NCBI GenBank assembly: GCA_020833225.1
Contig: JAJHQS010000003.1
Location: forward strand, 2,005-66,004
Length of the DNA: 64,000 bases
Direction: 5' to 3'
Source of the DNA: Desulfurococcaceae archaeon
Lineage (GTDB): Archaea > Thermoproteota > Thermoprotei_A > Sulfolobales > Desulfurococcaceae
Part shown: positions 49,441 through 64,000 of the stretch, piece by piece
Layout of the letters: the number at the start of each line of letters is the position of its first letter
Numbering within the stretch: the first letter of the stretch is position 1
The notes under the pieces: generated by a model
Database searches by the model: none
The model's input: the letters and a program-made list of their open reading frames with translations, nothing else
Told to the model about the DNA's origin: nothing
Translations under genes and position numbers: made by a program

Positions 49441-50073
49441 ATGATAGATGTTTGTTTAGCAATATTAGCAGGTGGTAGTGGAGAGAGATTTAGACATTAT
49501 AAACCACTAATACAGTTGGGTAGTAAGAAGTTAATAGAGTATATTTTAGAGAATTTAGCTCCATATTTTAATAGAACTCTACTAGTAGTTAAAAACGATC
49601 TCCAGAGAGAACTCTTAATTAATAATATTAGTAAAGCTATTAGTAAATATGATGTTGAAATAGTATTAGATAAAATAGATCTTGAGGGACCAATTGCCGG
49701 CATTATTACTGCTACTGAGTACTGTAATGACAAGTTATTAGCACTAGCCCCATCAGATACTCCATTCATAAAATTCAATATTTACGAGAAACTCAGAGAT
49801 TACGTAGTTAAAAGGCATTATGATGCAGCTATACCAATATGGCCTAATAACTACACTGAACCCTTAATCTCGCTTAGTGTTAGAGAGAGGCTTGCACACG
49901 CAGCTCACATGTGTATCTCAGGGAGGTGGAGAGTTCAAGACGTGTATAGTAAACTACATACAGCATATGTCAATATCTACTCTCTTAGTGAAAACCCTGA
50001 AGTAGATTTCCTCAATATAAATAATTATGGGGACTTAGAACTAGCTTTGAAAATTATTAATCAACGTAATTAA
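49441..50073 (+). CDS. mobA: MobA-like molybdenum cofactor guanylyltransferase
   Basis: ILAGGSGERF nucleotide-binding motif. 210 aa. Confidence 0.7.
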   Translation: MIDVCLAILAGGSGERFRHYKPLIQLGSKKLIEYILENLAPYFNRTLLVVKNDLQRELLINNISKAISKYDVEIVLDKIDLEGPIAGIITATEYCNDKLLALAPSDTPFIKFNIYEKLRDYVVKRHYDAAIPIWPNNYTEPLISLSVRERLAHAAHMCISGRWRVQDVYSKLHTAYVNIYSLSENPEVDFLNINNYGDLELALKIINQRN

Positions 50074-51142
50074 GCCACTCTATTGGCTTAATATAGTCTC
50101 TACCAGCAGCCTCAAACGTACCTATTATTATCTGATAATATATTTCACTATTTTTCAAATCTTCTACTTCTTCTAGTTTACCATAAGCCACTACTTCTTC
50201 TCCGGGCTTAGCAAGGTCTATGTAGAGGCCCTCATAACTCACAATCCTTGTTATTTGGCCAGGTGGGGGGATTCCTTCTAATACTCTTACATTGTCAACT
50301 ATGTATACAGCGGGCATGAAAATAGCGTCTCTGTTATCTATGACCCTAGCTTTTACTTTCACTAATCCAAGGGGTTTGTGGATTTTATCTTCCCACTGCT
50401 CATTTACTTCACTCTCTAATTTAACTGGGTGTATAGAAAATTGTCTTCCCTTGTAAATAGCTCTATTCCACTTATATTTACTATAAAGGATCATTGCTTC
50501 TCTTAGACTTAGTGGGTGATGTGATATTACATCTTTACTCCACTCTTCAAGCATTTTACCTCTAGGTAGAGAGAAATGTAATTCTTTTTCACTATGTAAT
50601 AGTTCTCTTAGAGCATCTCTAATAATCCAGCTATTACGTTCACCATAAATTATTACGTCTATATCTGAGTACTGTATATTGTGTATTTTTAAGAGGAGAG
50701 AACCTGTTATTCCGAAATTAACTAGATTTATGTTTGTTATATCAGATAACTCCTCAACTAGATCTATTGCTAGTTTTTCTAGATCATCTCGCTGTGAACT
50801 AAGAATTTCTTGTAATCTCTCTTCTGGTTTAAAATGTGTTTTAATTTTATACTTAGGCACCTCTATTAGTTCAATTGATCTATATTTATCGAAGACTATG
50901 TATTCTGGATAGTGATTTCTCAAATAGTTCATTGTGTCTTTAACTCCCATAGCGCTATAATATGGTAAAATTCTACCATACATAATGCCACTTCTACTCC
51001 ACTTAGTCCTAATACTTGAAGAATAGTGTGGTATATATTTCAAATACGCTATTACTCTATCAGCTGGATGTATATTGCCAATTACACAGAAAATTAAACC
51101 CTCACTAGACTCTAAGAAGTCTCTATCTCTAAACCCCCTCAT
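50057..51142 (-). CDS. Predicted Pol-beta-superfamily nucleotidyltransferase with a C-terminal OB-like domain
   Basis: GITGSLLLKIHNIQYSDIDVIIYG (G[GS]-x-D-x-D motif). The beta-rich C-terminus (VKARVIDNRD...VVAYGKLEEV) looks OB-like. Confidence 0.5.
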   Translation of the reverse strand: MRGFRDRDFLESSEGLIFCVIGNIHPADRVIAYLKYIPHYSSSIRTKWSRSGIMYGRILPYYSAMGVKDTMNYLRNHYPEYIVFDKYRSIELIEVPKYKIKTHFKPEERLQEILSSQRDDLEKLAIDLVEELSDITNINLVNFGITGSLLLKIHNIQYSDIDVIIYGERNSWIIRDALRELLHSEKELHFSLPRGKMLEEWSKDVISHHPLSLREAMILYSKYKWNRAIYKGRQFSIHPVKLESEVNEQWEDKIHKPLGLVKVKARVIDNRDAIFMPAVYIVDNVRVLEGIPPPGQITRIVSYEGLYIDLAKPGEEVVAYGKLEEVEDLKNSEIYYQIIIGTFEAAGRDYIKPIEWLNYVD

Positions 51143-51231: not shown

Positions 51232-52134
51232 ATGGCACATATAGTCATATCTGTAAATGTGATGTTAATGATTGAGGGATATTTAGTTAAATACAAGAAT
51301 TACTTCTGGGTTGTTAAAGGCTGTGAACACTTCGACGACTACATAATTGCCTATCCTCGCTATGATATTATTAATCAAGTTAAAATTAAAAGTACTAGTA
51401 GAGCATTAGATATAGCGAGGAAACTTGGAGTTTTAAGATATAATGAGTGTTTAAAACTAGAAGTCCCGTTACTAAGGAGAGATGAAATTGAAGATGTACT
51501 TAACCCCTTTAATAGAGATCTCTGGCCTGAATTACCGCGAGAAGTAGACCTGATTCTCGGAGATCTTGACTCAAACGAGTTAAGAGATATAGGATTAACT
51601 GGGAGTTACTTAGTGTCAACAATATTAGAGAATATTAAGCCAAGAGACGTGGACTTAATTATTAGAGATGTGAATGTGGGCTTTAAAGTCTATAAAAAAC
51701 TCAGAGAACTAAGAGAGAGGGGGAGTAGTAAGCCTTTAGAAGAACCAGAAGAATTTGAAGGATGTGATCCAGAGACCAGAACTATGTTGTTAAAGAGTAG
51801 AGTACTAGAGGGAGTCATAGGCGACATAATTTATAGTATACGAATATTATCATGTAGAGAGAGTTTTAAACCTACCTGTGTAGAGAGCTATGGGTTTTAT
51901 AGTGGAGAACTCATCATCGTGAAAGATATATCTCCAATAACCATGCCCTACACATACATCGCAGAAAGTAAGCTAGGTAAAATTCTGGTGAAGAGTTTAC
52001 GAATGAGATATAGTGAAATACCCGTGGGAACAAGGCTAATAGTATTAAACTGTAGAATAGAAAAATGCTCTGAGGATCTCACTCATATTAGCTTAGATGA
52101 ATGCACAGTTAAACTACTTTCATTAGTTATATGA
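51232..52134 (+). CDS. Predicted Pol-beta-superfamily nucleotidyltransferase, divergent paralogue of 50057..51142
   Basis: GLTGSYLVSTILENIKPRDVDLIIRD motif. Same three-part layout as its neighbour. An ATG near 51262 is a possible start. Confidence 0.45.
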   Translation: MAHIVISVNVMLMIEGYLVKYKNYFWVVKGCEHFDDYIIAYPRYDIINQVKIKSTSRALDIARKLGVLRYNECLKLEVPLLRRDEIEDVLNPFNRDLWPELPREVDLILGDLDSNELRDIGLTGSYLVSTILENIKPRDVDLIIRDVNVGFKVYKKLRELRERGSSKPLEEPEEFEGCDPETRTMLLKSRVLEGVIGDIIYSIRILSCRESFKPTCVESYGFYSGELIIVKDISPITMPYTYIAESKLGKILVKSLRMRYSEIPVGTRLIVLNCRIEKCSEDLTHISLDECTVKLLSLVI

Positions 52135-53336: not shown

Positions 53337-54434
53337 ATGGTGGAGAAGAGTGATAAGATAATTTTCGTTCAAGGAGAATTTAGAGAAGAGCTTCTAAATG
53401 GAAAAGCCCTCTGCATTTATGTTATAGCTTCAACAAAGACCTCCACGATCCCTGGGATATCGCTAGCTGGTCAAGCACCTCTACTCACGCTATTCACGCC
53501 AGCTTTAGATGTTGAATATCTTTACAACGGTATTCCGATCTCTTTCCCCATAATACCAACAACCCCTGAGGGAATACCAACTCCCGCTATTATAACGCGC
53601 TCCGCTATTAAACTCTCTCAATTACCCTACATAATTGTTGATGCTGGCTCCTTCATAGAACCAAGAGTTTCCTTATTAAAATTAGCCTGGAGAACTATAG
53701 GTGGTAGAATAGATATTGAAAATGCTTTACCTTTGGGAACTTCAAGAAAGCTTTTTGAAGAATCAAAGGAAGTAGGCAAAACTTATGGGTCTATAGCTAA
53801 CGTGATCGTTATTGGTGAAAGTATGCCTGGAGGAACTACAACCGCTATGGCTATACTTAGAGCTCTCAATTACGGAGAACCTGATGTTGTTAGTAGCTCT
53901 TCGAGAGATAACCCACTAGAACTCAAGAGAGCCATTACAGATAAGGCCCTTCAAAGATTAAAAAATAACGAAGATATCTTTAAAATAAATGATATCGTAG
54001 GAGATCCTCTACACATATCAATAGCCGGCATAGCTCTAGGTGCTCTTGAGAAAAAATCTCTCGTTGTTTTAGCTGGTGGTACACAGATGCTTGCAGTATT
54101 ATCATTAATGAAGGAGATCGAGCCTCAATTTGATCAGAGGAAAGTTGTTCTAGCTACGACTAGATGGATATATCTAGATAAAGGTGTAAAAATATTAAAT
54201 GTTCTTAGAAAATACTTCCCAGAGATAACTTTTACATATGTAGATATTAATTTTGAAGATGCCCCCTTTAAAGGACTTAGAGCATATGAAGAGGGATTCG
54301 TTAAAGAGGGTGTCGGTGCGGGAGGAACAGCTTTTCTAGCGATGATCAGGGGAGTTAAGGTGAGTGAACTAAAAAGTCGTGTATATGAGGAATATAGCAA
54401 CATCATTAGCCATGGTGTAATACCCTATGGTTAA
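53337..54434 (+). CDS. cobT: Archaeal-type nicotinate-nucleotide:dimethylbenzimidazole phosphoribosyltransferase (CobT, UPF0284 family)
   Basis: TKTSTIPGISLAG and IGESMPGGTTTAMAIL motifs. GAGGT lies 8 nt before the ATG. Confidence 0.75.
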   Translation: MVEKSDKIIFVQGEFREELLNGKALCIYVIASTKTSTIPGISLAGQAPLLTLFTPALDVEYLYNGIPISFPIIPTTPEGIPTPAIITRSAIKLSQLPYIIVDAGSFIEPRVSLLKLAWRTIGGRIDIENALPLGTSRKLFEESKEVGKTYGSIANVIVIGESMPGGTTTAMAILRALNYGEPDVVSSSSRDNPLELKRAITDKALQRLKNNEDIFKINDIVGDPLHISIAGIALGALEKKSLVVLAGGTQMLAVLSLMKEIEPQFDQRKVVLATTRWIYLDKGVKILNVLRKYFPEITFTYVDINFEDAPFKGLRAYEEGFVKEGVGAGGTAFLAMIRGVKVSELKSRVYEEYSNIISHGVIPYG

Positions 54435-55530
54435 AATTATTAGAAGTGATAGTGAAGCGCTCATAATTGATCTTGAGCGAGACATGGTACCTCTTTCGAC
54501 AGCCGGATGTCCCAAAGTGTTTACTACAGTAAGATATATTGTATTTAAACGTGTTCCAAAAGACTTCAGTCACGTTGACCTCGACGCATTCTGCTCAGAT
54601 CTCTCTAATTCTCTAGGTCTTGATGGAGCAAAAACCATAATTTTCTTAACAGCAGTTGATGTATCAACTTATAGTTATGCTCAAGCTGTTTTCAGAGATG
54701 TAAAAGTCGAAGTCTTTATAACTTTTGGTATTAATATGCCTTACTGCGTAAACATAGATATAGATGTTCATAATCAACTAAACACTATAAATATAGCTGT
54801 TATTGTAAATAAACCACTTAGCCGCCTAGCTCTCCTAGATCTTTTTAGAACAGTGTCTGAAATTAAGGGATCTATACTATCACTTGGAGGCCCTCAATGT
54901 ATTAGTGGTATTTCTTTAGGCACAGCATCTGACGCTACGACTGTTGTAGCTCCTGAGGACTCTAATAGATTTGCAGGCATCGCTACAGATATTGGAATAG
55001 CTACTGCACAAGCACTCATAAAAGCCTTAACTAAGTCATTAATAAACATTAATTATGAGGATTATATAGCAAAGACTTTGGGGTTAAATAACTTTGAATA
55101 CATTATAGAGTTAAGTAGAAGAGTCTATAACTTCGCACCTATACCTAGTGTTAACGAGGAAGAATTCCTCGAAGAGTTAAAAAAGGAATTTAGTTATGCG
55201 TTAACAGATCCAAATATTCAAATACTAATTAGAGGCGCGAAACTAGTTGAGATCTCTGCTCAACTTGGCTTAATACCCTCTATAACGTCTAGTGAATTTT
55301 TAGCTGACACTCCTAGAATCATAGTTGATGAGTTAATAGGTAAAGCTCTCTCAGAGTATATAAATGGTTTCAGGGGACTATTAGCTTATTACTGGGTAGA
55401 GAGGTTAAAAGAACGTGGAGACCTCTCTGAAATTAAGGAGCTTCCTCCGATCTCTGACGACATTATTACAGCGTTAATTGGAAGTATTCTCAGTAAGATC
55501 TACGATAAATATGTCCAATTGAAGAGGTAA
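54427..55530 (+). CDS. cbiZ: Adenosylcobinamide amidohydrolase CbiZ with a C-terminal extra domain of about 150 aa (possibly CobZ/PgpA-like, i.e. a CbiS-type fusion)
   Basis: The N-terminal 210 aa or so are CbiZ-like (TINIAVIVNKPLS, GTASDATTVV). The extension ends in ISDDIITALIGSILSKIY, reminiscent of the PgpA/CobZ C-terminal motif. Confidence 0.6.
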   Translation: MVKIIRSDSEALIIDLERDMVPLSTAGCPKVFTTVRYIVFKRVPKDFSHVDLDAFCSDLSNSLGLDGAKTIIFLTAVDVSTYSYAQAVFRDVKVEVFITFGINMPYCVNIDIDVHNQLNTINIAVIVNKPLSRLALLDLFRTVSEIKGSILSLGGPQCISGISLGTASDATTVVAPEDSNRFAGIATDIGIATAQALIKALTKSLININYEDYIAKTLGLNNFEYIIELSRRVYNFAPIPSVNEEEFLEELKKEFSYALTDPNIQILIRGAKLVEISAQLGLIPSITSSEFLADTPRIIVDELIGKALSEYINGFRGLLAYYWVERLKERGDLSEIKELPPISDDIITALIGSILSKIYDKYVQLKR

Positions 55531-55534
55531 AAGC

Positions 55535-56080
55535 ATGAACATATTAATTATGGCTGGAGGCAGAGGATCACGATTAGGAGGATTAAAGAAACCATTTTTA
55601 AGCCTATGTCGTAGGAGATTAATTGACGTGGTCATTGATGTGGCGAAGAGTCTTGTTAAGAATAATGAAATTTATCTTTGCATATGTAAAGACGATGTTA
55701 ACATGCTAAACAACGCTATAAATATAAATGTCATTTTGTGTCCTGGACAAGGTTATGTAGAAGACTTGATTTATGCTTTTCAAATAACTGGTTTTCCCAC
55801 ATTAGTGCTTCCAGCCGATATGCCTTTTCTTACTAGAGAAGTTGTTGAGAGGTTTTTGAGTGAAGCTTTACGTTTAGAGAGTGACGTTGTAACCTTAATG
55901 GTTTGTAACAAGAATGAATGTAAGGAGTCAGGTATATCGCTTTTTAGAAAAACTGGTGGTTCCTGGAGTAATGTATACTTTGAGGAGGATATTCGATTAA
56001 GAGATATTGATACATATGAAGACCTTGTGTGGGCTGAAAAACTTTGCGAATCCATGGAGGGGATAGAAGAGCGAGATTAG
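55535..56080 (+). CDS. cobY: Adenosylcobinamide-phosphate guanylyltransferase (archaeal CobY)
   Basis: ILIMAGGRGSRLGG nucleotidyltransferase motif. 181 aa. In the cob operon. Confidence 0.75.
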   Translation: MNILIMAGGRGSRLGGLKKPFLSLCRRRLIDVVIDVAKSLVKNNEIYLCICKDDVNMLNNAININVILCPGQGYVEDLIYAFQITGFPTLVLPADMPFLTREVVERFLSEALRLESDVVTLMVCNKNECKESGISLFRKTGGSWSNVYFEEDIRLRDIDTYEDLVWAEKLCESMEGIEERD

Positions 56081-57102
56081 ATTTTAGTTCAAATATAAAT
56101 CCTTTAGCACCTCCTAAATATGTCTATAATATTATCTCAGAGTGTATAGATAAGAGAGTTCTTGAAAAATATCCTGACTACAATTATGAGGAACTCCGTA
56201 GTGCTATATCAAAGTTCTATGAGTGTGATTCGGAAAATATTATTCCGACGGCAGGGGCTCATGAAGCGATAAACTTAACAATTCTTGCTTTAAAGCCTAA
56301 GAAAATAATCGTCCTTGAACCCTCTTACGGCGAATATGAGGATCTTTCAGGTGTTTTAAACATAGATTATATTCCACTATATTATAAACGCCTAGAAGAA
56401 GGCTTTTATCTAGATGTTACACAACTTAACGCGTTCTGCCAGGATAGAGAAGCCCTTATCGTAATTACAAATCCTAATAATCCCACAGGTTCATATATAG
56501 ATAGATCACAACTACTAGATTCATTATCTCAATGTAAGGCAAAGATACTTGTAGATGAGGCTTATATGGAGCTATGTACTCACTGTCCTATAACAGTCAA
56601 AAATGTCACATCTGAGAACTTTATTATAGTGAGGTCTCTGACCAAATGGCTTGGATTACCAGGCATGAGATTAGGATTTCTTTATGTAACCTCTCGTAGC
56701 GTTATCGACAAAATTAATATTCTTAGACAACCTTGGAATATTAATAGCTTGACTGAATGTCTTGTCACTGAACTTTTTAATAAGTTTTCAAATGAATTAT
56801 ACAGCTTTATAAGAGCTTCAAAAGAGTTTATTTACAGAGAAAGAGAACGTGTATCTATCGCGCTTAAGGAAATGGGGATCAAAGTTTATGAAAGCGTTAC
56901 AAATTTCCTATTAATTGAAGTGAGAGAGGGGTTAAAATTAGTAAGTGTATTAAAAGAGAATGGTATTGCTGTTAGAAGCTGTCTTAGCTTTAAAGGACTG
57001 GGACCTAATTTTATAAGAATAGCCATTAGAAAAACAGAAGAAAATGATGAGCTTTTAAAGGTGTTAAAAGAGGTAATAGGGTGTGAGCAAGGTCATAGAT
57101 GA
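56044..57102 (+). CDS. cobD: L-threonine-O-3-phosphate decarboxylase (CobD, class I/II aminotransferase fold)
   Basis: IHGGD...LDFSSNINPLAPP N-terminus and the PLP lysine region RSLTKWLGLPGMRLG. Confidence 0.8.
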   Translation: MRIHGGDRRARLDFSSNINPLAPPKYVYNIISECIDKRVLEKYPDYNYEELRSAISKFYECDSENIIPTAGAHEAINLTILALKPKKIIVLEPSYGEYEDLSGVLNIDYIPLYYKRLEEGFYLDVTQLNAFCQDREALIVITNPNNPTGSYIDRSQLLDSLSQCKAKILVDEAYMELCTHCPITVKNVTSENFIIVRSLTKWLGLPGMRLGFLYVTSRSVIDKINILRQPWNINSLTECLVTELFNKFSNELYSFIRASKEFIYRERERVSIALKEMGIKVYESVTNFLLIEVREGLKLVSVLKENGIAVRSCLSFKGLGPNFIRIAIRKTEENDELLKVLKEVIGCEQGHR

Positions 57103-57862
57103 CTTCTTTTCACTTTTATGTTTCTTCACATCAATACCTATACCTAAACACCTTTGTAAGTCTAGTGAGTTTAGTTCTTTATACCTAATTCCTTTAATAG
57201 GCTTCATTAAGGGTGTCGTTATAGCTTTACCCATCGCTATACTCAGAATTTTAAACTTCGACATCTTTATTACGACATCGATAGTTTTAATTTTACACTT
57301 CACTGTTCAAGGGTTTTTACATGCAGATGGATTTATAGATTTCTCAGAGGCATTATTGGCGCATAGACTTGGCATAGATCCCTATATGGTTATTAAAGAT
57401 AAATATAAAGGCTCTTACGCTATAGCTGTTTTCGTGACCTTCGTACTCTTCCTTTATACATCGCTTTATGGTCTTTTAAATAAACTCACTCCGTTAAATT
57501 CATTCATTTATATAGTACTAAGTGAGACTTGGAGTCTAACATCAGTCCTAATATTGTCTTATTTTAGTTCAACTTCTCTTAAGGGTTTAGGCAGAGAATT
57601 TAAGGAGGGGATTGATTTCCACGACGTCATAATAGGGCTTGTAATAATATTTACCATTAATGTTACTACAATAATTCCTATTAAAGGTCTAATTGGTGGC
57701 ATCTATAGTTTCATTTCTTCTTTGATACCAATAGTGTTTTCAGTGATGTTTTCACATACTTTAAGTGTTAAAACTCTAGGTTTTATAACTGGTGATGTTC
57801 TTGGATTTACTGTCGAGTTAACATACGCGCTCGTAGTAATTACATATTTCATCTTGGTGTAA
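57083..57862 (+). CDS. cobS: Adenosylcobinamide-GDP ribazoletransferase (cobalamin synthase CobS)
   Basis: Polytopic, 259 aa, with the HADGFIDFSEAL motif. Confidence 0.8.
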   Translation: MSKVIDDFFSLLCFFTSIPIPKHLCKSSEFSSLYLIPLIGFIKGVVIALPIAILRILNFDIFITTSIVLILHFTVQGFLHADGFIDFSEALLAHRLGIDPYMVIKDKYKGSYAIAVFVTFVLFLYTSLYGLLNKLTPLNSFIYIVLSETWSLTSVLILSYFSSTSLKGLGREFKEGIDFHDVIIGLVIIFTINVTTIIPIKGLIGGIYSFISSLIPIVFSVMFSHTLSVKTLGFITGDVLGFTVELTYALVVITYFILV

Positions 57863-57864
57863 GC

Positions 57865-58833
57865 TTGGATTTAACATATATTTACCCTAAAAATCTCGCT
57901 GAATTTTTATGTATACTGATCTTGGCTATAATATTTGACTTTGTTTACCCCTACCATAGAGGCCTCTTATATCTTATACATCCAACACACACAGCTTACA
58001 CGTTAGCTTTTATTCTTTATAAAATATTTCCGAAGACAAAGGCTTCGGGGCTAATCATATGGCTCATAGTAGTCCTTTCTCATATTTCCATTTATGGGGT
58101 TATTTTATATTTAACATGCAAAATTCATAAAATTTTATGGCTAATAGCATCAATCTACATAGTCAAGGTCTCTATATCCCTCAAGCTCTTAATAAACTAC
58201 GTAAACAGCGTCAAACTCTGCCTACAAAGAGGGGAAATAACATGTGCTAGAGAGGCTGTATCACATATTGTTAGGAGAGATGTAAGTAAACTCGATGAGG
58301 GGTATGTGGCGTCAGCTGCCTTAGAATCTCTTTTTGAAAGCCTAGTTGACGGATTTACATCCCCTCTTTTACTCTACTTACTACTCGGACCACTTGGAGC
58401 CCTCCTTCAAAGAGTGACAAATACGCTTGATTCAGCTCTCGGTTATAAAGAACCTAATTTTAAAGATGTGGGGTGGTTCTCGGCTAAAGCTGATACTTAT
58501 ATAAACTTCATACCAGCGAGGTTTACAGCTTTTTTAATAATTTTACTTTGTCCCACGATCAAGGGCTCTATGGATAGATCTTGGAAGATCTATTTAAGAG
58601 ATAAAAATGCTACTCAGAGCAAAAATGCAGGACACCCCATGGCTTCTGCTTCTGGCTGTTTATCCGTTAGACTTGAAAAAATCTGCTCATATGTCTTAGG
58701 CTCGGAATATCCCTTACCAACATATAGAGATATACACAAAGGTTTAAAGCTCGCAATTCATGTAGCTCTAACCTTCTTAATCTTAGTTATCTCTATATAC
58801 TATTTCGTTTCTGACATCATTCTGATCAATTAA
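57865..58833 (+). CDS. cbiB: Adenosylcobinamide-phosphate synthase (CbiB)
   Basis: 322-aa membrane protein. GYVASAALESLFESLVDGFTSPL and SKNAGHPMASASG motifs. Confidence 0.8.
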   Translation: MDLTYIYPKNLAEFLCILILAIIFDFVYPYHRGLLYLIHPTHTAYTLAFILYKIFPKTKASGLIIWLIVVLSHISIYGVILYLTCKIHKILWLIASIYIVKVSISLKLLINYVNSVKLCLQRGEITCAREAVSHIVRRDVSKLDEGYVASAALESLFESLVDGFTSPLLLYLLLGPLGALLQRVTNTLDSALGYKEPNFKDVGWFSAKADTYINFIPARFTAFLIILLCPTIKGSMDRSWKIYLRDKNATQSKNAGHPMASASGCLSVRLEKICSYVLGSEYPLPTYRDIHKGLKLAIHVALTFLILVISIYYFVSDIILIN

Positions 58834-58982: not shown

Positions 58983-59543
58983 TTATTTTGATGCTTCTAA
59001 GAGTAGTGCTTGATACTGTATGGTAAAAATTAGATCTGATAGTCTATTGAGAAGAACACCTATATTTTTACATCCTAAACTGGTATCATGAAAACATTGC
59101 CAAAACCATCTTTCAGCTCTTCTAATAACTGTTCTAGTTATTGCTGTTAATGCTACGCCACCTCGTCTTGGATTTTTAACGTAATTAGTAATGATTTTAT
59201 TTGGTTTTACTTTATTATTAATTCTTCTCTCAATATCAAGAATTAAGTCTTCGCTAGGACACCAATTGCTTTTTAGAGATGATGCTATTTTTAATAGTAA
59301 TTCATATACATATTCAAGATCTCTTACAATCAGATCTACGCTACTATTTTCTATAGCGAGACCTATGAAAGCTAATGCCTCATCTATAGAGCCTATAAAA
59401 TGCACACAGGGATGGTATTTTGGGAGTTTAATACTGCCTATAGAGGTACTTCCATTATCACCACTCCTAGTATATACGGTTGTTATACGTGGTGAGTTTA
59501 CACTCTCTGAGTTTAAGTCACACATATATAAAACTCCTCCCAT
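58983..59543 (-). CDS. pduO: PduO-type ATP:cob(I)alamin adenosyltransferase
   Basis: YTRSGDNGSTSIGS...IGSIDEA N-terminal motif. About 180 aa, helical. Confidence 0.8.
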   Translation of the reverse strand: MGGVLYMCDLNSESVNSPRITTVYTRSGDNGSTSIGSIKLPKYHPCVHFIGSIDEALAFIGLAIENSSVDLIVRDLEYVYELLLKIASSLKSNWCPSEDLILDIERRINNKVKPNKIITNYVKNPRRGGVALTAITRTVIRRAERWFWQCFHDTSLGCKNIGVLLNRLSDLIFTIQYQALLLEASK

Positions 59544-60313
59544 TAGTCGTCGAGGATAGACTTACATATATCTTTAGTTCCAGCACCCCCCTCAGCTGGT
59601 ATTTTCATTCTATCGGCAATTGTGTGTAAACCGTACATTGAGAGAATGTATCTTAAGATTTCTTTTCCCCTCATAAGCTGAGACCTTAAGCAATCTATAG
59701 GTATATTTTCAACGATATCTATGATTCTAGGATCACTTAGAGGAGTACAGATTTTTATGTTAACACAATTTGCTATTAATACTTCTGAAAATATACCTTT
59801 AGAAAGCTTTTTAATAGCTTCTATAAGCTCGTTTTCAGTTAGATTTAACATGAAGCTATAGCCAGCAAAAACTTCATCACCCCCTGTTCCTGTGAAGATG
59901 CATTTACATCCATCATCTTTAGCCTGTTTAAGTACTGTGTAGAAGACAATATCATTTCTAATTTCAACACATCCACCATCTCTGTGTGTATCTAAATTCT
60001 CTTCACCAATACATTTAGTAACGTTAATAACGAGATCTTTAATATTACTCAGATCTATGATTAAGTATTTTATATCGATGTTAAATAGTTTAGATAATTG
60101 ATTAACGTAATACAGATCCTTTGGTAAACCATGTTTATAAAACACAACATAACCCCTAGGCTTTAATCCAGCTAATACTGCGGCTAATAGGATAGTTGTT
60201 GTGTCTATCCCGCCGCTAAGAGCTATGCAATCACAACTACATTCATCTACAGTTTTTATAAGTGTTTCGAGAAGATTTCTCGCTAAAATATCACATGGCA
60301 TACGTAGACTCAT
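59543..60313 (-). CDS. Asparagine-synthase-like PP-loop adenylating enzyme (synthetase domain only, no glutaminase domain)
   Basis: ALSGGIDTTTILLAA PP-loop and TGTGGDEVFAGYSF, the AsnB C-domain signature. 256 aa. Confidence 0.65.
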   Translation of the reverse strand: MSLRMPCDILARNLLETLIKTVDECSCDCIALSGGIDTTTILLAAVLAGLKPRGYVVFYKHGLPKDLYYVNQLSKLFNIDIKYLIIDLSNIKDLVINVTKCIGEENLDTHRDGGCVEIRNDIVFYTVLKQAKDDGCKCIFTGTGGDEVFAGYSFMLNLTENELIEAIKKLSKGIFSEVLIANCVNIKICTPLSDPRIIDIVENIPIDCLRSQLMRGKEILRYILSMYGLHTIADRMKIPAEGGAGTKDICKSILDD

Positions 60314-60936
60314 TATATCAGCCTCAAGATCCTATATTCATCACAATCTTCTACACTTAAAGGTTTAAACTCTAATGGTTTTATGTGAAGAGGGCCATTA
60401 ATGACTATAGTATGATATTCGCCATGCTCACCTAAGGGATCTGCATTTATCCTACATAATTTCTCGATGAAATCTTCAATATTATCCTGATCTATTTGCT
60501 GACCAAGCCACTCACTAATATCCTTTCTGCATCCGATAATTAATGGCTTAATACCTTTTTCTATTTCCTCATAGAGTAAGTTGACGGGATCATAGCCCCA
60601 TAATGGCTCTATAAGTTTAGCTCCAACCTCTGTAGATAATTTCTCCATGTATTTAAGATGTTCTTCTATGTATACGTCTCCAGCAATAATGACGCTAGGA
60701 TTAAGTTTTCTCAAAATGTTTAATGTTTCAGCGAATTCTTTGCCTTTACTGAGTTTAACCACGATTATAGGTATTTTTGCTAAGAGTAAAGTCTCAATTG
60801 TCTTGCCTAGATTTAAAGTATGTGGATTAGGTCTAGGAAATTCATATACAAATACGAGCCCTAAGTCGATCGTGAGACCTGACTTATAGACGGCGTAATA
60901 GGAGTCTTTACCACCAGATAAAAAGGCTATATACAC
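60313..60936 (-). CDS. MJ0570/Dph6-family PP-loop ATP pyrophosphatase (diphthine-ammonia-ligase-like)
   Basis: AFLSGGKDSYYA PP-loop, PLWGYD, and GEHGEYHTIVINGP. Confidence 0.7.
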   Translation of the reverse strand: MYIAFLSGGKDSYYAVYKSGLTIDLGLVFVYEFPRPNPHTLNLGKTIETLLLAKIPIIVVKLSKGKEFAETLNILRKLNPSVIIAGDVYIEEHLKYMEKLSTEVGAKLIEPLWGYDPVNLLYEEIEKGIKPLIIGCRKDISEWLGQQIDQDNIEDFIEKLCRINADPLGEHGEYHTIVINGPLHIKPLEFKPLSVEDCDEYRILRLI

Positions 60937-61658
60937 TCATAGGCACCTCTTATAGTTTTAAGGACATTTATAGGAATAAGTATTTTTGTATTCTTGAGAT
61001 CTGTTATATGGTAAGTGGTTCTCGGTGGTAATGTAAGTCCTTTAGCCGCTACCTTGTATATTTCACTTACTGAGAGCTCAGGAAGAATTATGCATATATC
61101 GTGTGAGGAGCATAATTTAGAATTATATGGTGTCTTTTTAAACACTCTGATAAAGTCATTGAACATGCTATCTTTTCTTAACTCATTTAAAGTTACATAT
61201 AGATCTAATGCATCAACATAGATGTGCTGAAATATTTCACCAACCTTTACATATAGACTACTAGACCCTCTTTTAACGTTAGACTCTAATATATTGATTA
61301 AAACTGAACTCGTTTTCAATGTTGCCTGGTTTAAGTCTGCAATATACATCCAAGAGCCGATTCTGTCAATGTGTTTATCATAAGAGGCAATAAATGCGGG
61401 TATGAAATAAACTCCTAGAGTTTTTAAAGCTTTAACTCTATGATGACCATCAATAATTATACTTCTCTTCTCGTCAATGATAATTGGTTTAACGACCTTA
61501 TTTAAATATAGGTCCTTAAGAACTTGTCTAAAATGAACTAAATCTATGTCTTCATGTGGAGTCAGATCATTAATATTAATAATAGCTAGCTCAACATCTT
61601 TAATACTCCTCGCAGTGCTCGTTTTCCCAGCCACATTATAAGCCTTATCTTTAAACAT
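60927..61658 (-). CDS. ParB/sulfiredoxin-fold protein, SerK-like (candidate small-molecule kinase)
   Basis: LTPHEDIDL...PIIIDEKRSIIIDGHHRVKALKTLG, the ParB/Srx DGHHR core. The 243-aa size is like that of archaeal ParB-fold serine kinases. Confidence 0.5.
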   Translation of the reverse strand: MFKDKAYNVAGKTSTARSIKDVELAIININDLTPHEDIDLVHFRQVLKDLYLNKVVKPIIIDEKRSIIIDGHHRVKALKTLGVYFIPAFIASYDKHIDRIGSWMYIADLNQATLKTSSVLINILESNVKRGSSSLYVKVGEIFQHIYVDALDLYVTLNELRKDSMFNDFIRVFKKTPYNSKLCSSHDICIILPELSVSEIYKVAAKGLTLPPRTTYHITDLKNTKILIPINVLKTIRGAYECI

Positions 61659-62469
61659 AAGGATCGCTCGTTATTTCATGTTTTCCGGAGTTAATGAGTT
61701 TTGGATACAATAAGTGAATTTCACCTAGATATCTTCTCGTATATGAACTCCTGATCACAACTTTCTTTAAATGTTTCTCAGCCCTCTTCTTAGCATCTAT
61801 GAGCTCATTTAATAAAGGTCTTCTATAAGGTGCTGAAGGTATAGGCACATACTCATCTATAATTAAAGGTACATCTCTGCTTAGGTTGTGTGCTACGTAT
61901 TCTGCTAGTAGTTCTATATCTTCTGCTTCATTAAATCCGGGTATAAATATTGTCTCGATAATTAGTTCTAACCCGCTTTGAAATGCCGAATCCATGTTCT
62001 CAAGTATTATATTTAAATCTCTCTTATTTCTTCCAGTATATGCTGAGAATTTCTCGGGATGTATGCTCTTAACACTTAATTCTACTATGGAGCTTTTCGG
62101 TATGCAGTTAAGTACCTTATTAAGAAGATATCCATTAGTTAGAATAACTAATTTAAGATCTAAAAGGTTTAAGGCCTTTATAATATCACAAAACATTGGA
62201 TCGAACGTTGGCTCACCACCCCCTAATATAGCTTTTCTTAGATCTAACTCTCTTTTAGCATATTTCACTATTTCTATAAACTCCTCTGAATCAAGCGTCT
62301 CTAACCTTAATTTTTCTAACTCTTCTACACAATTCTCTCTGTAAAGATGATGATCGCGGAGAAATCTCTTTCTTATACAGCCAACACACTTAAAGTTGCA
62401 ATCGGCAAACATTATGTAAATGGATTTATTATGGCTATAGTAAGTTATATTGTAGATTAATGTCCTCAT
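61651..62469 (-). CDS. Radical SAM enzyme (activase-like small core)
   Basis: CNFKCVGC (Cx3Cx2C) and the GGGEPT SAM motif. 272 aa. Confidence 0.8.
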   Translation of the reverse strand: MRTLIYNITYYSHNKSIYIMFADCNFKCVGCIRKRFLRDHHLYRENCVEELEKLRLETLDSEEFIEIVKYAKRELDLRKAILGGGEPTFDPMFCDIIKALNLLDLKLVILTNGYLLNKVLNCIPKSSIVELSVKSIHPEKFSAYTGRNKRDLNIILENMDSAFQSGLELIIETIFIPGFNEAEDIELLAEYVAHNLSRDVPLIIDEYVPIPSAPYRRPLLNELIDAKKRAEKHLKKVVIRSSYTRRYLGEIHLLYPKLINSGKHEITSDPYV

Positions 62470-62477
62470 AAAGGCAC

Positions 62478-63269
62478 CTATAATTCCATCTTATTGAGGG
62501 GCTCTAGCGGGATCACGGCTATTCTCCCGTTTATATCTAGGATATGTGTTTTAACACCATATACTTTCTCGAGTAGATCTTCTCTAAATATCTCTCTCGG
62601 TCTCCCTACTGCTACTATTTCCCCATTACTCATTATCACAACTTTATCGGCATATAAAGAGGCTAAGTAGAGGTCGTGTATAGCTATAATGCATATAGAT
62701 CTATTTATCTTTGTAAATTTTTTAACGAGATCTAATATTTCTAGCTTATACTTAAGGTCTAGGAACGCGGAAGGCTCATCAAGCAATAATACTTTAGATC
62801 CTTGTATAAAGGCTCTTGCTATGAGGACTCTTTGTAATTCACCACTACTAAGCTGATCTAGTTTTCTATCTAGTAGATGACTAATGTTCAGCTGTTTAGA
62901 GATCTTATCTACGATTTCTAAGTCTTCTTGTGACATAGAAAACGTTAACATATTCTGATGGGGATATCTAGCTGTGAGTAAGAATTCAAACACTGTTGAT
63001 GGTAGAGATTTAGATATTTGATAATCTACATATGCGAGTATTTTGCTAAGCTCTTTTAGCGAAAATTTTGAGAGAGCTTTACCATCTATATATATGACGC
63101 CAACTTTCGGTTTTATAATAAGCGCTATTGTTTTTAAGAGTGTAGATTTACCAGCACCATTGGGCCCGATAATGAACGTTAGCTCACCCTCATTGATCTC
63201 GAGAGACGCATCTCTTAGAGCTTGTATTGAGTCATACCAGACTTCTAATCCTTTGATAACTATCTTCAC
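62478..63269 (-). CDS. ABC transporter ATPase of the iron-chelate/cobalamin type (BtuD/FepC-like)
   Basis: GPNGAGKST, LSSGELQRV, LLLDEPSAFLD. GTG start overlaps the permease stop (GTGA). Confidence 0.85.
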   Translation of the reverse strand: MKIVIKGLEVWYDSIQALRDASLEINEGELTFIIGPNGAGKSTLLKTIALIIKPKVGVIYIDGKALSKFSLKELSKILAYVDYQISKSLPSTVFEFLLTARYPHQNMLTFSMSQEDLEIVDKISKQLNISHLLDRKLDQLSSGELQRVLIARAFIQGSKVLLLDEPSAFLDLKYKLEILDLVKKFTKINRSICIIAIHDLYLASLYADKVVIMSNGEIVAVGRPREIFREDLLEKVYGVKTHILDINGRIAVIPLEPLNKMEL

Positions 63270-64000
63270 CTTCTCATCCTCTTAATAACAAGATATGATA
63301 AAAATGGCGCTCCAATAACAGCTGTTACTACACCTAATGGAAGCTCGCCTAAACCTCCTATGAATATACTTATAGCTTTCACAATAATGTCGGCAATTAG
63401 TGTAAGTAGTGCTCCTATAAAAATAGTTGTTGGTATGGAGAACTTGTGATCTATCCCCACGAAGAACCTTGCTATATGTGGTGCAACAAGCCCTATAAAT
63501 CCCACAACACCGATGAACGCTATTGTAGTCGCAGTTAGGAAAGCTGATATAGAGGCTGTAAAAATTCTTATTGATGCAGGATTAAAACCTAATTGTTTAG
63601 CAAATTCATCTCCATAGAGATAAGCATTGAGAGGTTTAAAGAGAGCTAAACTTAGCGTGATGGGAACTATTATAAGGGGGATTAGAAGCTGCACATCTCC
63701 CCATAAAGTAGTGCTAACAGTGCCCATTAACAAATACATGTATGGAACTTTAGTCATACTTTGCACTATGTATAATAGAATATGTGAAACTCCACCAAAG
63801 AGGGATGCAACAGCTATGCCAGCTAAGACCATCGCGATATCGCTTCCTCCGCCTAATTTTGAAAGTAGAAGCGTTAACGTAAAACCTATCATTGCACCTA
63901 TAAATGAAATTGTCACTACATAAACTCTTTGAATCATAAGGTCTGGTGCGAGAATAATCCCTAATGCGAGAGCTGTTAGCGCTGTTGAAGACAGCCCAAA
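63266..64000 (-). CDS. FecCD/BtuC-type ABC permease; N-terminus lies beyond the window end
   Basis: Polytopic. The reading frame stays open upstream of Met 63937 to position 64000 (FGLSSTALTALALGIILAPDL). The C-terminal GAPFLSYLVIKR is typical of FecCD. Confidence 0.8.
   Translation of the reverse strand, partial: FGLSSTALTALALGIILAPDLMIQRVYVVTISFIGAMIGFTLTLLLSKLGGGSDIAMVLAGIAVASLFGGVSHILLYIVQSMTKVPYMYLLMGTVSTTLWGDVQLLIPLIIVPITLSLALFKPLNAYLYGDEFAKQLGFNPASIRIFTASISAFLTATTIAFIGVVGFIGLVAPHIARFFVGIDHKFSIPTTIFIGALLTLIADIIVKAISIFIGGLGELPLGVVTAVIGAPFLSYLVIKRMRR

Follow-up and report, generated by a model that had tools for sequence, protein, structure and literature searches.

The stretch analyzed here, called the window throughout, comprises 64,000 nucleotides of a Desulfurococcaceae archaeon (NCBI GenBank assembly GCA_020833225.1, contig JAJHQS010000003.1, positions 2,005 to 66,004 of the forward strand). 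Close to its end lies a minus-strand open reading frame (ORF; 60927..61658) of 243 aa, whose product had been proposed to be a SerK-like protein of the ParB/sulfiredoxin fold and a candidate for the L-threonine kinase that is missing from cobamide assembly in archaea. The position, minus strand and ATG start were found in the ORF listing as described. The translation contains NDLTPHEDIDLVHF and RSIIIDGHHRVKALKTLGVYF, and both of the motifs quoted earlier, LTPHEDIDL and IIIDGHHRVKALKTLG, are present in it. The N-terminal 18 residues are of low quality in the structure model and missing from most orthologs; no alternative start codon was evident for this gene.

The gene of the candidate kinase belongs to a tightly packed minus-strand operon with the order btuC-btuD-radical SAM gene-candidate kinase gene-Dph6-like gene-AsnS-like gene-pduO. 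The head of the operon encodes a corrinoid ABC importer, with btuD and btuC at 62478..64000 (Pfam ABC_tran and FecCD), of which btuD alone occupies 62478-63269 and btuC runs past the window end. A longer contig with identical genes (L004; loci of the comparison carry the letter L and proteins the letter P) places btuF at the very head, just beyond the window. The radical SAM protein (61651..62469, 272 aa, motif CNFKCVGC; Pfam Radical_SAM, expectation value E 2e-16) is translationally coupled 5' of the candidate kinase and resembles MoaA and activase families only weakly. The reading frames overlap, by 8 nt where the start ATG of the candidate kinase gene meets the radical SAM stop codon, and by 10 nt where its own stop meets the start of the following gene. 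This following gene encodes a Dph6-like PP-loop ATP pyrophosphatase of the DUF71-B12/TTX_0299 family (60313..60936; NF052347, 256.5 bits, above the cut-off), and after it come an Asn-synthase-like (AsnS-like) PP-loop protein of 256 aa (59543..60313; Pfam Asn_synthase, E 3e-14) and a PduO-type ATP:cob(I)alamin adenosyltransferase (58983..59543; Pfam Cob_adeno_trans, E 6e-25), all on the minus strand. The identical protein and gene order are carried by five other metagenome contigs.

The original prediction had also pointed to a facing operon with CobD and CbiB, which is present and faces in the sense of being convergent. The plus-strand operon cobT-cbiS(cbiZ+cobZ)-cobY-cobD-cobS-cbiB (53337-58833) and the operon ending in pduO meet tail to tail with 150 bp between them, and the candidate kinase gene thus lies in a convergent operon about 2 kb from cbiB. 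The genes cobT (archaeal type), cbiS (cbiZ+cobZ) and cobY (53337..56080; NCBIfam) cover nucleotide-loop assembly and cobinamide salvage. They are followed on the same strand by cobD (56044..57102), encoding an L-threonine-O-3-phosphate (Thr-P) decarboxylase of 352 aa that matches TIGR01140 end to end (E 1e-72, residues 4-342) and has no extra domain, by cobS for cobalamin-5'-phosphate synthase (57083..57862; Pfam CobS on the identical L004 gene), and by cbiB for adenosylcobinamide-phosphate synthase (57865..58833; NF002281, 318 bits, above the cut-off). Two ORFs just upstream of this operon (50057-51142, minus strand, 361 aa, and 51232-52134, plus strand, 300 aa) gave no Pfam match at E 1e-5. 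An Rfam scan of the whole 64 kb returned nothing reaching the gathering score, and hence no tRNA, rRNA or cobalamin riboswitch.

Between them, the two operons cover the import of corrinoids by BtuFCD, adenosylation by PduO, the cleavage of cobinamide by CbiZ, attachment of the linker by CbiB, decarboxylation of Thr-P by CobD, guanylylation by CobY, activation of the base by CobT, condensation by CobS and dephosphorylation by CobZ. The sole reaction of the pathway without a gene in these operons is the phosphorylation of L-threonine to Thr-P. The earlier observation that the window holds no PduX-type kinase stands, as the GHMP-kinase motif II occurs in no window ORF and ten further mid-sized window ORFs (285-361 aa) gave no kinase when searched against Pfam. 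A second member of the candidate's own family was likewise absent from the window, and neither a PduX-like kinase nor a kinase-fused CobD was found within these 64 kb. EC 2.7.1.177 (L-threonine kinase) was recorded as an open pathway gap in haloarchaea in 2021 (PMC8305020), and PduX and BluE are the only Thr kinases named in a review of 2020 (PMC7242693). Our literature search returned no paper tying a ParB/SerK-like protein to cobamides.

Fold and conserved residues of the candidate kinase

In the NCBIfam search, the candidate kinase was matched by the SerK family (E 9e-11) and, near full length, by the SbnI family (E 4e-7), and both family cut-offs were missed by a wide distance (SerK NF053625, 41.4 vs 380 bits; SbnI NF033589, 29.5 vs 350 bits). 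A phmmer search of the PDB sequences returned only SbnI (E 1.5e-5), SerK (E 1e-4) and the P. furiosus SerK homolog 1vk1. When a profile of the clade was compared with T. kodakarensis SerK by HHalign, the two aligned with 97.5% probability (E 8e-12) over 183 columns, which span the PHE motif through the C-terminal TT-H. An AlphaFold2 (AF2) model, built on an 80-sequence family alignment, reached a mean predicted local distance difference test score (pLDDT) of 92.5 and a predicted template modeling score (pTM) of 0.86. By searching this model against the PDB with Foldseek, ranks 1-9 were all occupied by free serine kinases, namely SerK, SbnI or 1vk1, with E 6e-12 to 9e-10, template modeling (TM) scores of 0.58-0.67 and 221-244 aligned columns, i.e., over the whole length. 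The ParB/sulfiredoxin core noticed earlier is therefore borne out and extends to a full two-domain SerK/SbnI fold in AF2, Foldseek and HHalign, and the superposition on SerK that had been suggested gives a whole-length match with TM up to 0.67. Judging from the profiles and the model, the candidate kinase belongs to the two-domain SerK/SbnI structural class. On sequence scores it is an ortholog of neither SerK nor SbnI and represents a new clade. In the phylogenetic comparison, which had also been suggested, the protein falls in a clade separate from SerK.

A canonical ParB or Noc partition protein was considered as well and ruled out. The Pfam ParB_N match is below threshold (17.6 bits against a gathering score of 26.3), the Pfam search detected no helix-turn-helix or other DNA-binding domain and no GHMP match, and canonical ParB, Noc and sulfiredoxin structures fit the N-domain only, with TM of about 0.26 for ParB/Noc in Foldseek.

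The catalytic residues of SerK are retained, including the catalytic Glu and the Asp of the DGHHR loop. E36 is aligned with SerK E30, the residue that was mutated (E30A, E30Q) in PDB 5x0e, 5x0g, 5x0j and 5x0k. Across the 80 family members, E36, D70, G71, H73 and R74 are invariant, and the conservation of T215 and H217 is 90% or more. In all 26 clade members, E36, D70, G71, H72, H73, R74 and H217 are invariant. Residues 211-217 read PPRTTYH, so that the C-terminal P-[KR]-T-T-x-H motif is present, and the invariant residues specific to the cobamide-linked clade are K129, D152, Y154, K175 and R213.

By comparing the candidate with its characterized relatives, the same two-domain build of about 240 aa is found in SerK (T. 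kodakarensis TK0378, PDB 5x0b and 5x0e; Staphylothermus), as are the DGHHR loop, P-[KR]-T-T-x-H and the PHE motif with its catalytic Glu (E30 = E36). However, the identity to SerK is only 18-19%, the residue before the motif His is Tyr in the candidate and Arg in SerK, and position 213 is Arg in the candidate and Lys in SerK. The genomic contexts also differ, with cobamide assembly for the candidate and cysteine and serine metabolism for SerK, which works with ADP and has a role in cysteine synthesis (PMC5120207). SbnI of Staphylococcus (PDB 5ujd, 5uje, 6nr6) is the best PDB sequence match, shares the two-domain fold (TM 0.66) and is likewise a kinase in a biosynthetic operon, that of staphyloferrin B, where it feeds an enzyme dependent on pyridoxal 5'-phosphate (PLP). 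Nevertheless, SbnI is bacterial, shares 16-21% identity with the candidate, has DGVHR in place of DGHHR and ends with the diverged C-terminal motif PAGVTRF.

Orthologs and their gene neighborhoods

An exhaustive HMMER scan, which covered 1.84 billion cluster representatives, returned 1471 relatives, 14 of them at E < 1e-30, and the query stood alone in its own 50% identity cluster. Relatives of 200-250 aa that are 31-42% identical to the query carry the motifs along their whole length. Gene contexts were taken from GTDB species representatives, whose loci were annotated by searching the window cob proteins against the locus ORFs, from exact look-ups of metagenome proteins, and from a CbiB-anchored scan of 80 metagenome loci. 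At 23 other loci, an ortholog (24-43% identical to the query) lies directly downstream of cbiB on the same strand in cobT-cbiZ-cobY-cobD-cobS-cbiB operons; the link to cobD and cbiB is thus much stronger than could be seen in the window. Clustering of the 26 clade sequences yields 19 groups at 90% identity and 14 at 50%, and three of the sequences have no such context downstream of cbiB. In L008-L013, which come from three Ignisphaera species, Zestosphaera tikiterensis, a Desulfurococcales metagenome-assembled genome (MAG) and another Thermoproteota MAG, the ortholog stands right after cbiB in the order btuC-btuD-cobT-cbiS-cobY-cobD-cobS-cbiB-[kinase]-Dph6-like-(AsnS-like). The cbiB-kinase junction occurs likewise in L072, L073, L074, L077 and L079, which were obtained by the metagenome look-ups. 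The setting within a btuCD...pduO operon, on which the original prediction had drawn, exists here, but this arrangement and its radical SAM gene are particular to the lineage of the window; the conserved setting is cbiB-kinase-DUF71-B12. The radical SAM gene was found in none of the 80 cbiB-anchored loci, and its one other occurrence is at the edge of L012, where it lies on the opposite strand. It was rejected as a functional partner, being missing from all other loci but that one, and is a lineage-specific insertion.

In the CbiB-anchored scan, the candidate kinase stands right after cbiB in 12 of the 80 loci and upstream of cobT in one; in 8 others the AsnS-like and Dph6-like genes follow cbiB without the kinase, and the remaining loci have neither. 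When CbiB is at least 50% identical to that of the window, the kinase is present in 10 of 13 loci. In cbiB clusters lacking the candidate kinase, no substitute kinase adjoins cbiB within the local context, to which this result applies. Apparent CobD kinase fusions in L120, L126 and L148 were rejected, the long ORFs being artefacts of high G+C and few stops. In L093, L106 and L108, cobY and cobD are separated by an insert of 1.7 kb, which was rejected as a kinase too, since it encodes PdxS and PdxT, which were identified by reading the sequences. In these three higher-G+C clusters without the kinase, pdxS and pdxT lie at L093:2386-3992, L106:2402-4008 and L108:2347-3986, and the insertion puts PLP synthesis beside the PLP-dependent CobD.

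The most constant neighbor of the kinase gene is the DUF71-B12 gene, and the AsnS-like gene is a frequent third of the trio. With or without the kinase, the two form a conserved pair after cbiB, as observed in L008-L013, L073, L077, L079 and L080-L096, with the window copy at 59543-60936 on the minus strand. The Dph6-like protein of the window has the signature GEHGEYH, comparable to ENGE[F/Y]H (PMC3541065). The tie of DUF71-B12 to B12 salvage is a prediction made in 2012, and the family is widespread in bacteria (PMC3541065). For the AsnS-like protein, Pfam and NCBIfam matched the synthase part only. As a speculation, the PP-loop pair might re-amidate corrinoid side chains that are hydrolyzed at high temperature. 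Since the pair follows cbiB without the kinase in 8 loci and DUF71-B12 is widespread in bacteria, we regard the kinase as an independent add-on module and not as an obligate partner of the pair.

The same observations bear on the alternative that the protein is no linker enzyme at all, but a nucleotide-dependent regulator or an accessory of the DUF71-B12/AsnS-like pair in corrinoid salvage or repair. SbnI is annotated as a bifunctional regulator and kinase, its regulatory side involving DNA binding, ParB-fold proteins serve as NTP switches, CTP was bound by a SerK-like archaeal protein (PMC12704722), and the function of the constant neighbor DUF71-B12 is itself only predicted (PMC3541065). Against this, the catalytic Glu is invariant and no DNA-binding domain of the helix-turn-helix or any other type was detected; the pair also occurs alone in the 8 loci mentioned, and DUF71-B12 is widespread in bacteria. 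We consider a regulatory or accessory role very doubtful.

In a neighbor-joining tree, every cobamide-linked sequence falls in one clade, and the proteins of the sister clade share 27-33% identity with the query along their full length and carry its motifs, PP[KR]TTYH among them. Its members adjoin TrpB2 and not cob genes. At six Thermoproteota loci they are encoded directly downstream of a TrpB-like enzyme of 450-480 aa (L001:3527-4192, L014:891-1538, L015:9992-10600, L018:3726-4406, L020:4502-5146 and L022:9989-10573), and this enzyme scores 680-707 bits on TrpB2 models, well above the cut-off. No paper on a pairing of a SerK-like protein with TrpB2 was found in the literature. In a further relative, P0046 (582 aa), a SerK-like ParB-fold N-terminus (residues 3-85) is naturally fused to a CysK/CysM/SbnA-like PLP enzyme (residues 286-559), and this protein is a Rosetta-stone link between the kinase family and enzymes that use O-phosphoserine. 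More distant ParB/SerK-like proteins, with the motif PPKTTRH, are encoded after a TtuA/NcsA-like tRNA sulfurtransferase gene (L016:9992-10639, L024:9992-10630 and L025:8816-9514), which makes a third context of the family.

Proposed function in cobamide assembly and in the wider family

On the evidence of the sequence and the model, we lean slightly towards the candidate kinase being a dedicated L-threonine kinase that feeds CobD. This rating was given because the conversion of Thr to Thr-P is the only missing step, no alternative kinase occurs in the window, EC 2.7.1.177 is a recorded gap, and the literature search gave no prior link. The candidacy put forward in the original prediction is supported by predicted structure and comparative genomics alike, through the fold, the catalytic residues, the clade and the synteny. 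The protein would be a soluble small-molecule kinase, with an N-terminal ParB/sulfiredoxin-like nucleotide domain and a C-terminal substrate domain that flank the active site. If it works as SerK does, the substrate hydroxyl would be deprotonated by Glu36 (SerK Glu30). The donor nucleotide, which may be ATP, ADP or CTP, would be held at its phosphates by the DGHHR loop (D70-R74), and the C-terminal PPRTTYH (T215, H217) would help to bind the amino-acid substrate. Free L-threonine is the most likely substrate, with Thr-P as the product. CobD of the neighboring operon would decarboxylate Thr-P to aminopropanol phosphate (AP-P), and CbiB would join AP-P to adenosylcobyric acid, the product of CbiZ from imported corrinoids.

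Several observations weigh against an L-threonine kinase. Nothing in the candidate sequence separates Thr from Ser specificity, and T. kodakarensis SerK rejects Thr and homoserine, so that a change of specificity must be assumed (PMC5120207). For one archaeal SerK-like protein, binding of CTP and not ATP is reported (PMC12704722). Furthermore, the kinase is not general to archaea, as many archaeal cbiB clusters are without it (it follows cbiB in 12 of 80), and its constant neighbors are two PP-loop ATPases, whose reaction it might serve instead. One ortholog, P0011 (L076:10001-10747), does not adjoin cbiB, and in the lineage of L073, L080 and L081 there is also a GHMP kinase 2 kb downstream, i.e., a second candidate kinase.

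The neighbors of P0011 are pylS/B/C/D, mtmB and genes for a corrinoid protein, an MtbA-like methyltransferase and the corrinoid activase RACo, with a Dph6/DUF71-like gene 5 kb off; the source of L076 is presumably a methylotrophic methanogen-like archaeon. The GHMP kinase (309 aa) lies within an energy-coupling factor (ECF) transporter module (L073:9165-11709; about 9100-11720 in L080 and L081). It matches pantoate kinases best, at about 100 bits and far short of the cut-off, and no homolog was found in the window or in the other loci. As a pantoate-kinase-like protein inside an ECF module it was set aside as a PduX and remains a caveat; its role may be to trap a vitamin precursor after import, or it may be a second candidate kinase.

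The question of specificity leads to the alternative of a free L-serine kinase, whose O-phosphoserine would either be turned by the CobD homolog into ethanolamine phosphate for a nor-type linker or enlarge the O-phosphoserine pool. Every characterized relative (SerK and SbnI) phosphorylates Ser, the sister clade is linked with TrpB2, which uses O-phosphoserine, and P0046 is fused to a cysteine-synthase-like enzyme. Besides the rejection of Thr by T. kodakarensis SerK, no residue change that makes room for the Thr methyl was identified in the candidate. On the other hand, the cobamide-linked sequences make up a clade apart from the TrpB2-linked one, with a set of invariant residues specific to it, a pattern expected from a change of function, and the neighboring decarboxylase scores best as the Thr-P decarboxylase CobD. 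To our knowledge, nor-cobamides occur in very few bacteria and in no archaeon. A serine kinase at this locus appears quite improbable to us.

Another hydroxyl of the pathway may also be considered as the target, either that of (R)-1-amino-2-propanol released by CbiZ, that of adenosylcobinamide in a CobU-like step, or that of alpha-ribazole as with CblS. The place of the gene after cbiB, in the same operon as cbiZ, would equally suit a supply of AP-P to CbiB, and aminopropanol is threonine minus its carboxylate; in addition, archaea lack CobU kinase activity as far as we know. Yet the T-x-H motif (T215, H217) of the amino-acid kinases SerK and SbnI is kept, which suggests the same class of substrate, and the small interdomain cleft of the SerK fold is an unlikely site for a corrinoid. 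Moreover, CobD, CbiZ and CobT are all present, so the pathway closes without these activities, whereas a Thr kinase is needed. Such a target is unlikely in our opinion.

The reading as an L-threonine kinase can also be set against the Thr-P sources of other organisms. PduX of Salmonella and DabA are L-threonine kinases of the GHMP family and catalyze the reaction proposed for the candidate, and the role of PduX, the supply of Thr-P to CobD in coenzyme B12 synthesis, is also the proposed one. The GHMP fold is unrelated to that of the candidate, which would be an analog and not a homolog. BluE of Rhodobacterales belongs to a different protein family and is another non-orthologous source of Thr-P for cobamides. 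Tavares et al. in 2018 reportedly described the CobD of Methanosarcina mazei (MM2060) as bifunctional and making Thr-P for cobamides. This solution is inapplicable here, as the window CobD has 352 aa and no extra domain. The candidate kinase would then take the place of PduX and BluE, as a non-orthologous enzyme, in one group of hyperthermophilic Thermoproteota. That a ParB/sulfiredoxin-fold enzyme is the missing Thr kinase of a branch of Archaea, non-orthologous after PduX, BluE and the Methanosarcina CobD and arisen by duplication of a serine kinase feeding TrpB2, seems to us evenly poised between true and false.

The sister clade fits into a broader pattern. Because O-phospho-L-serine is the substrate of TrpB2 (Busch 2014, cited in PMC11917138), the sister-clade proteins are likely to be dedicated serine kinases feeding TrpB2. 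From the pairing with TrpB2, the P0046 fusion, SerK in cysteine synthesis and SbnI in staphyloferrin B synthesis, the wider family looks like a set of hydroxy-amino-acid kinases, each beside the PLP enzyme that consumes its phospho-amino acid. It is consistent with this pattern that the PLP enzyme paired with the cobamide-linked clade is CobD.

The L-threonine kinase is the one late cobamide step without an assigned gene in most archaea, and the protein described here is a concrete candidate with strong synteny, on present sequence and model data the best so far for the Thr kinase missing from archaeal B12 assembly. The novelty lies in a clade of putative kinases of the SerK/SbnI fold for which a new substrate and a new pathway role are predicted. 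If the assignment is true, the chemistry of the ParB/sulfiredoxin fold would extend from serine to threonine, and the hydroxy-amino-acid kinases would emerge as a small family whose members each have a PLP enzyme as partner, be it TrpB2, a cysteine-synthase-like enzyme or CobD. It would also mean a better annotation of the cobamide pathway in hot-spring Thermoproteota, in which these genes are now nameless or labelled ParB-like.

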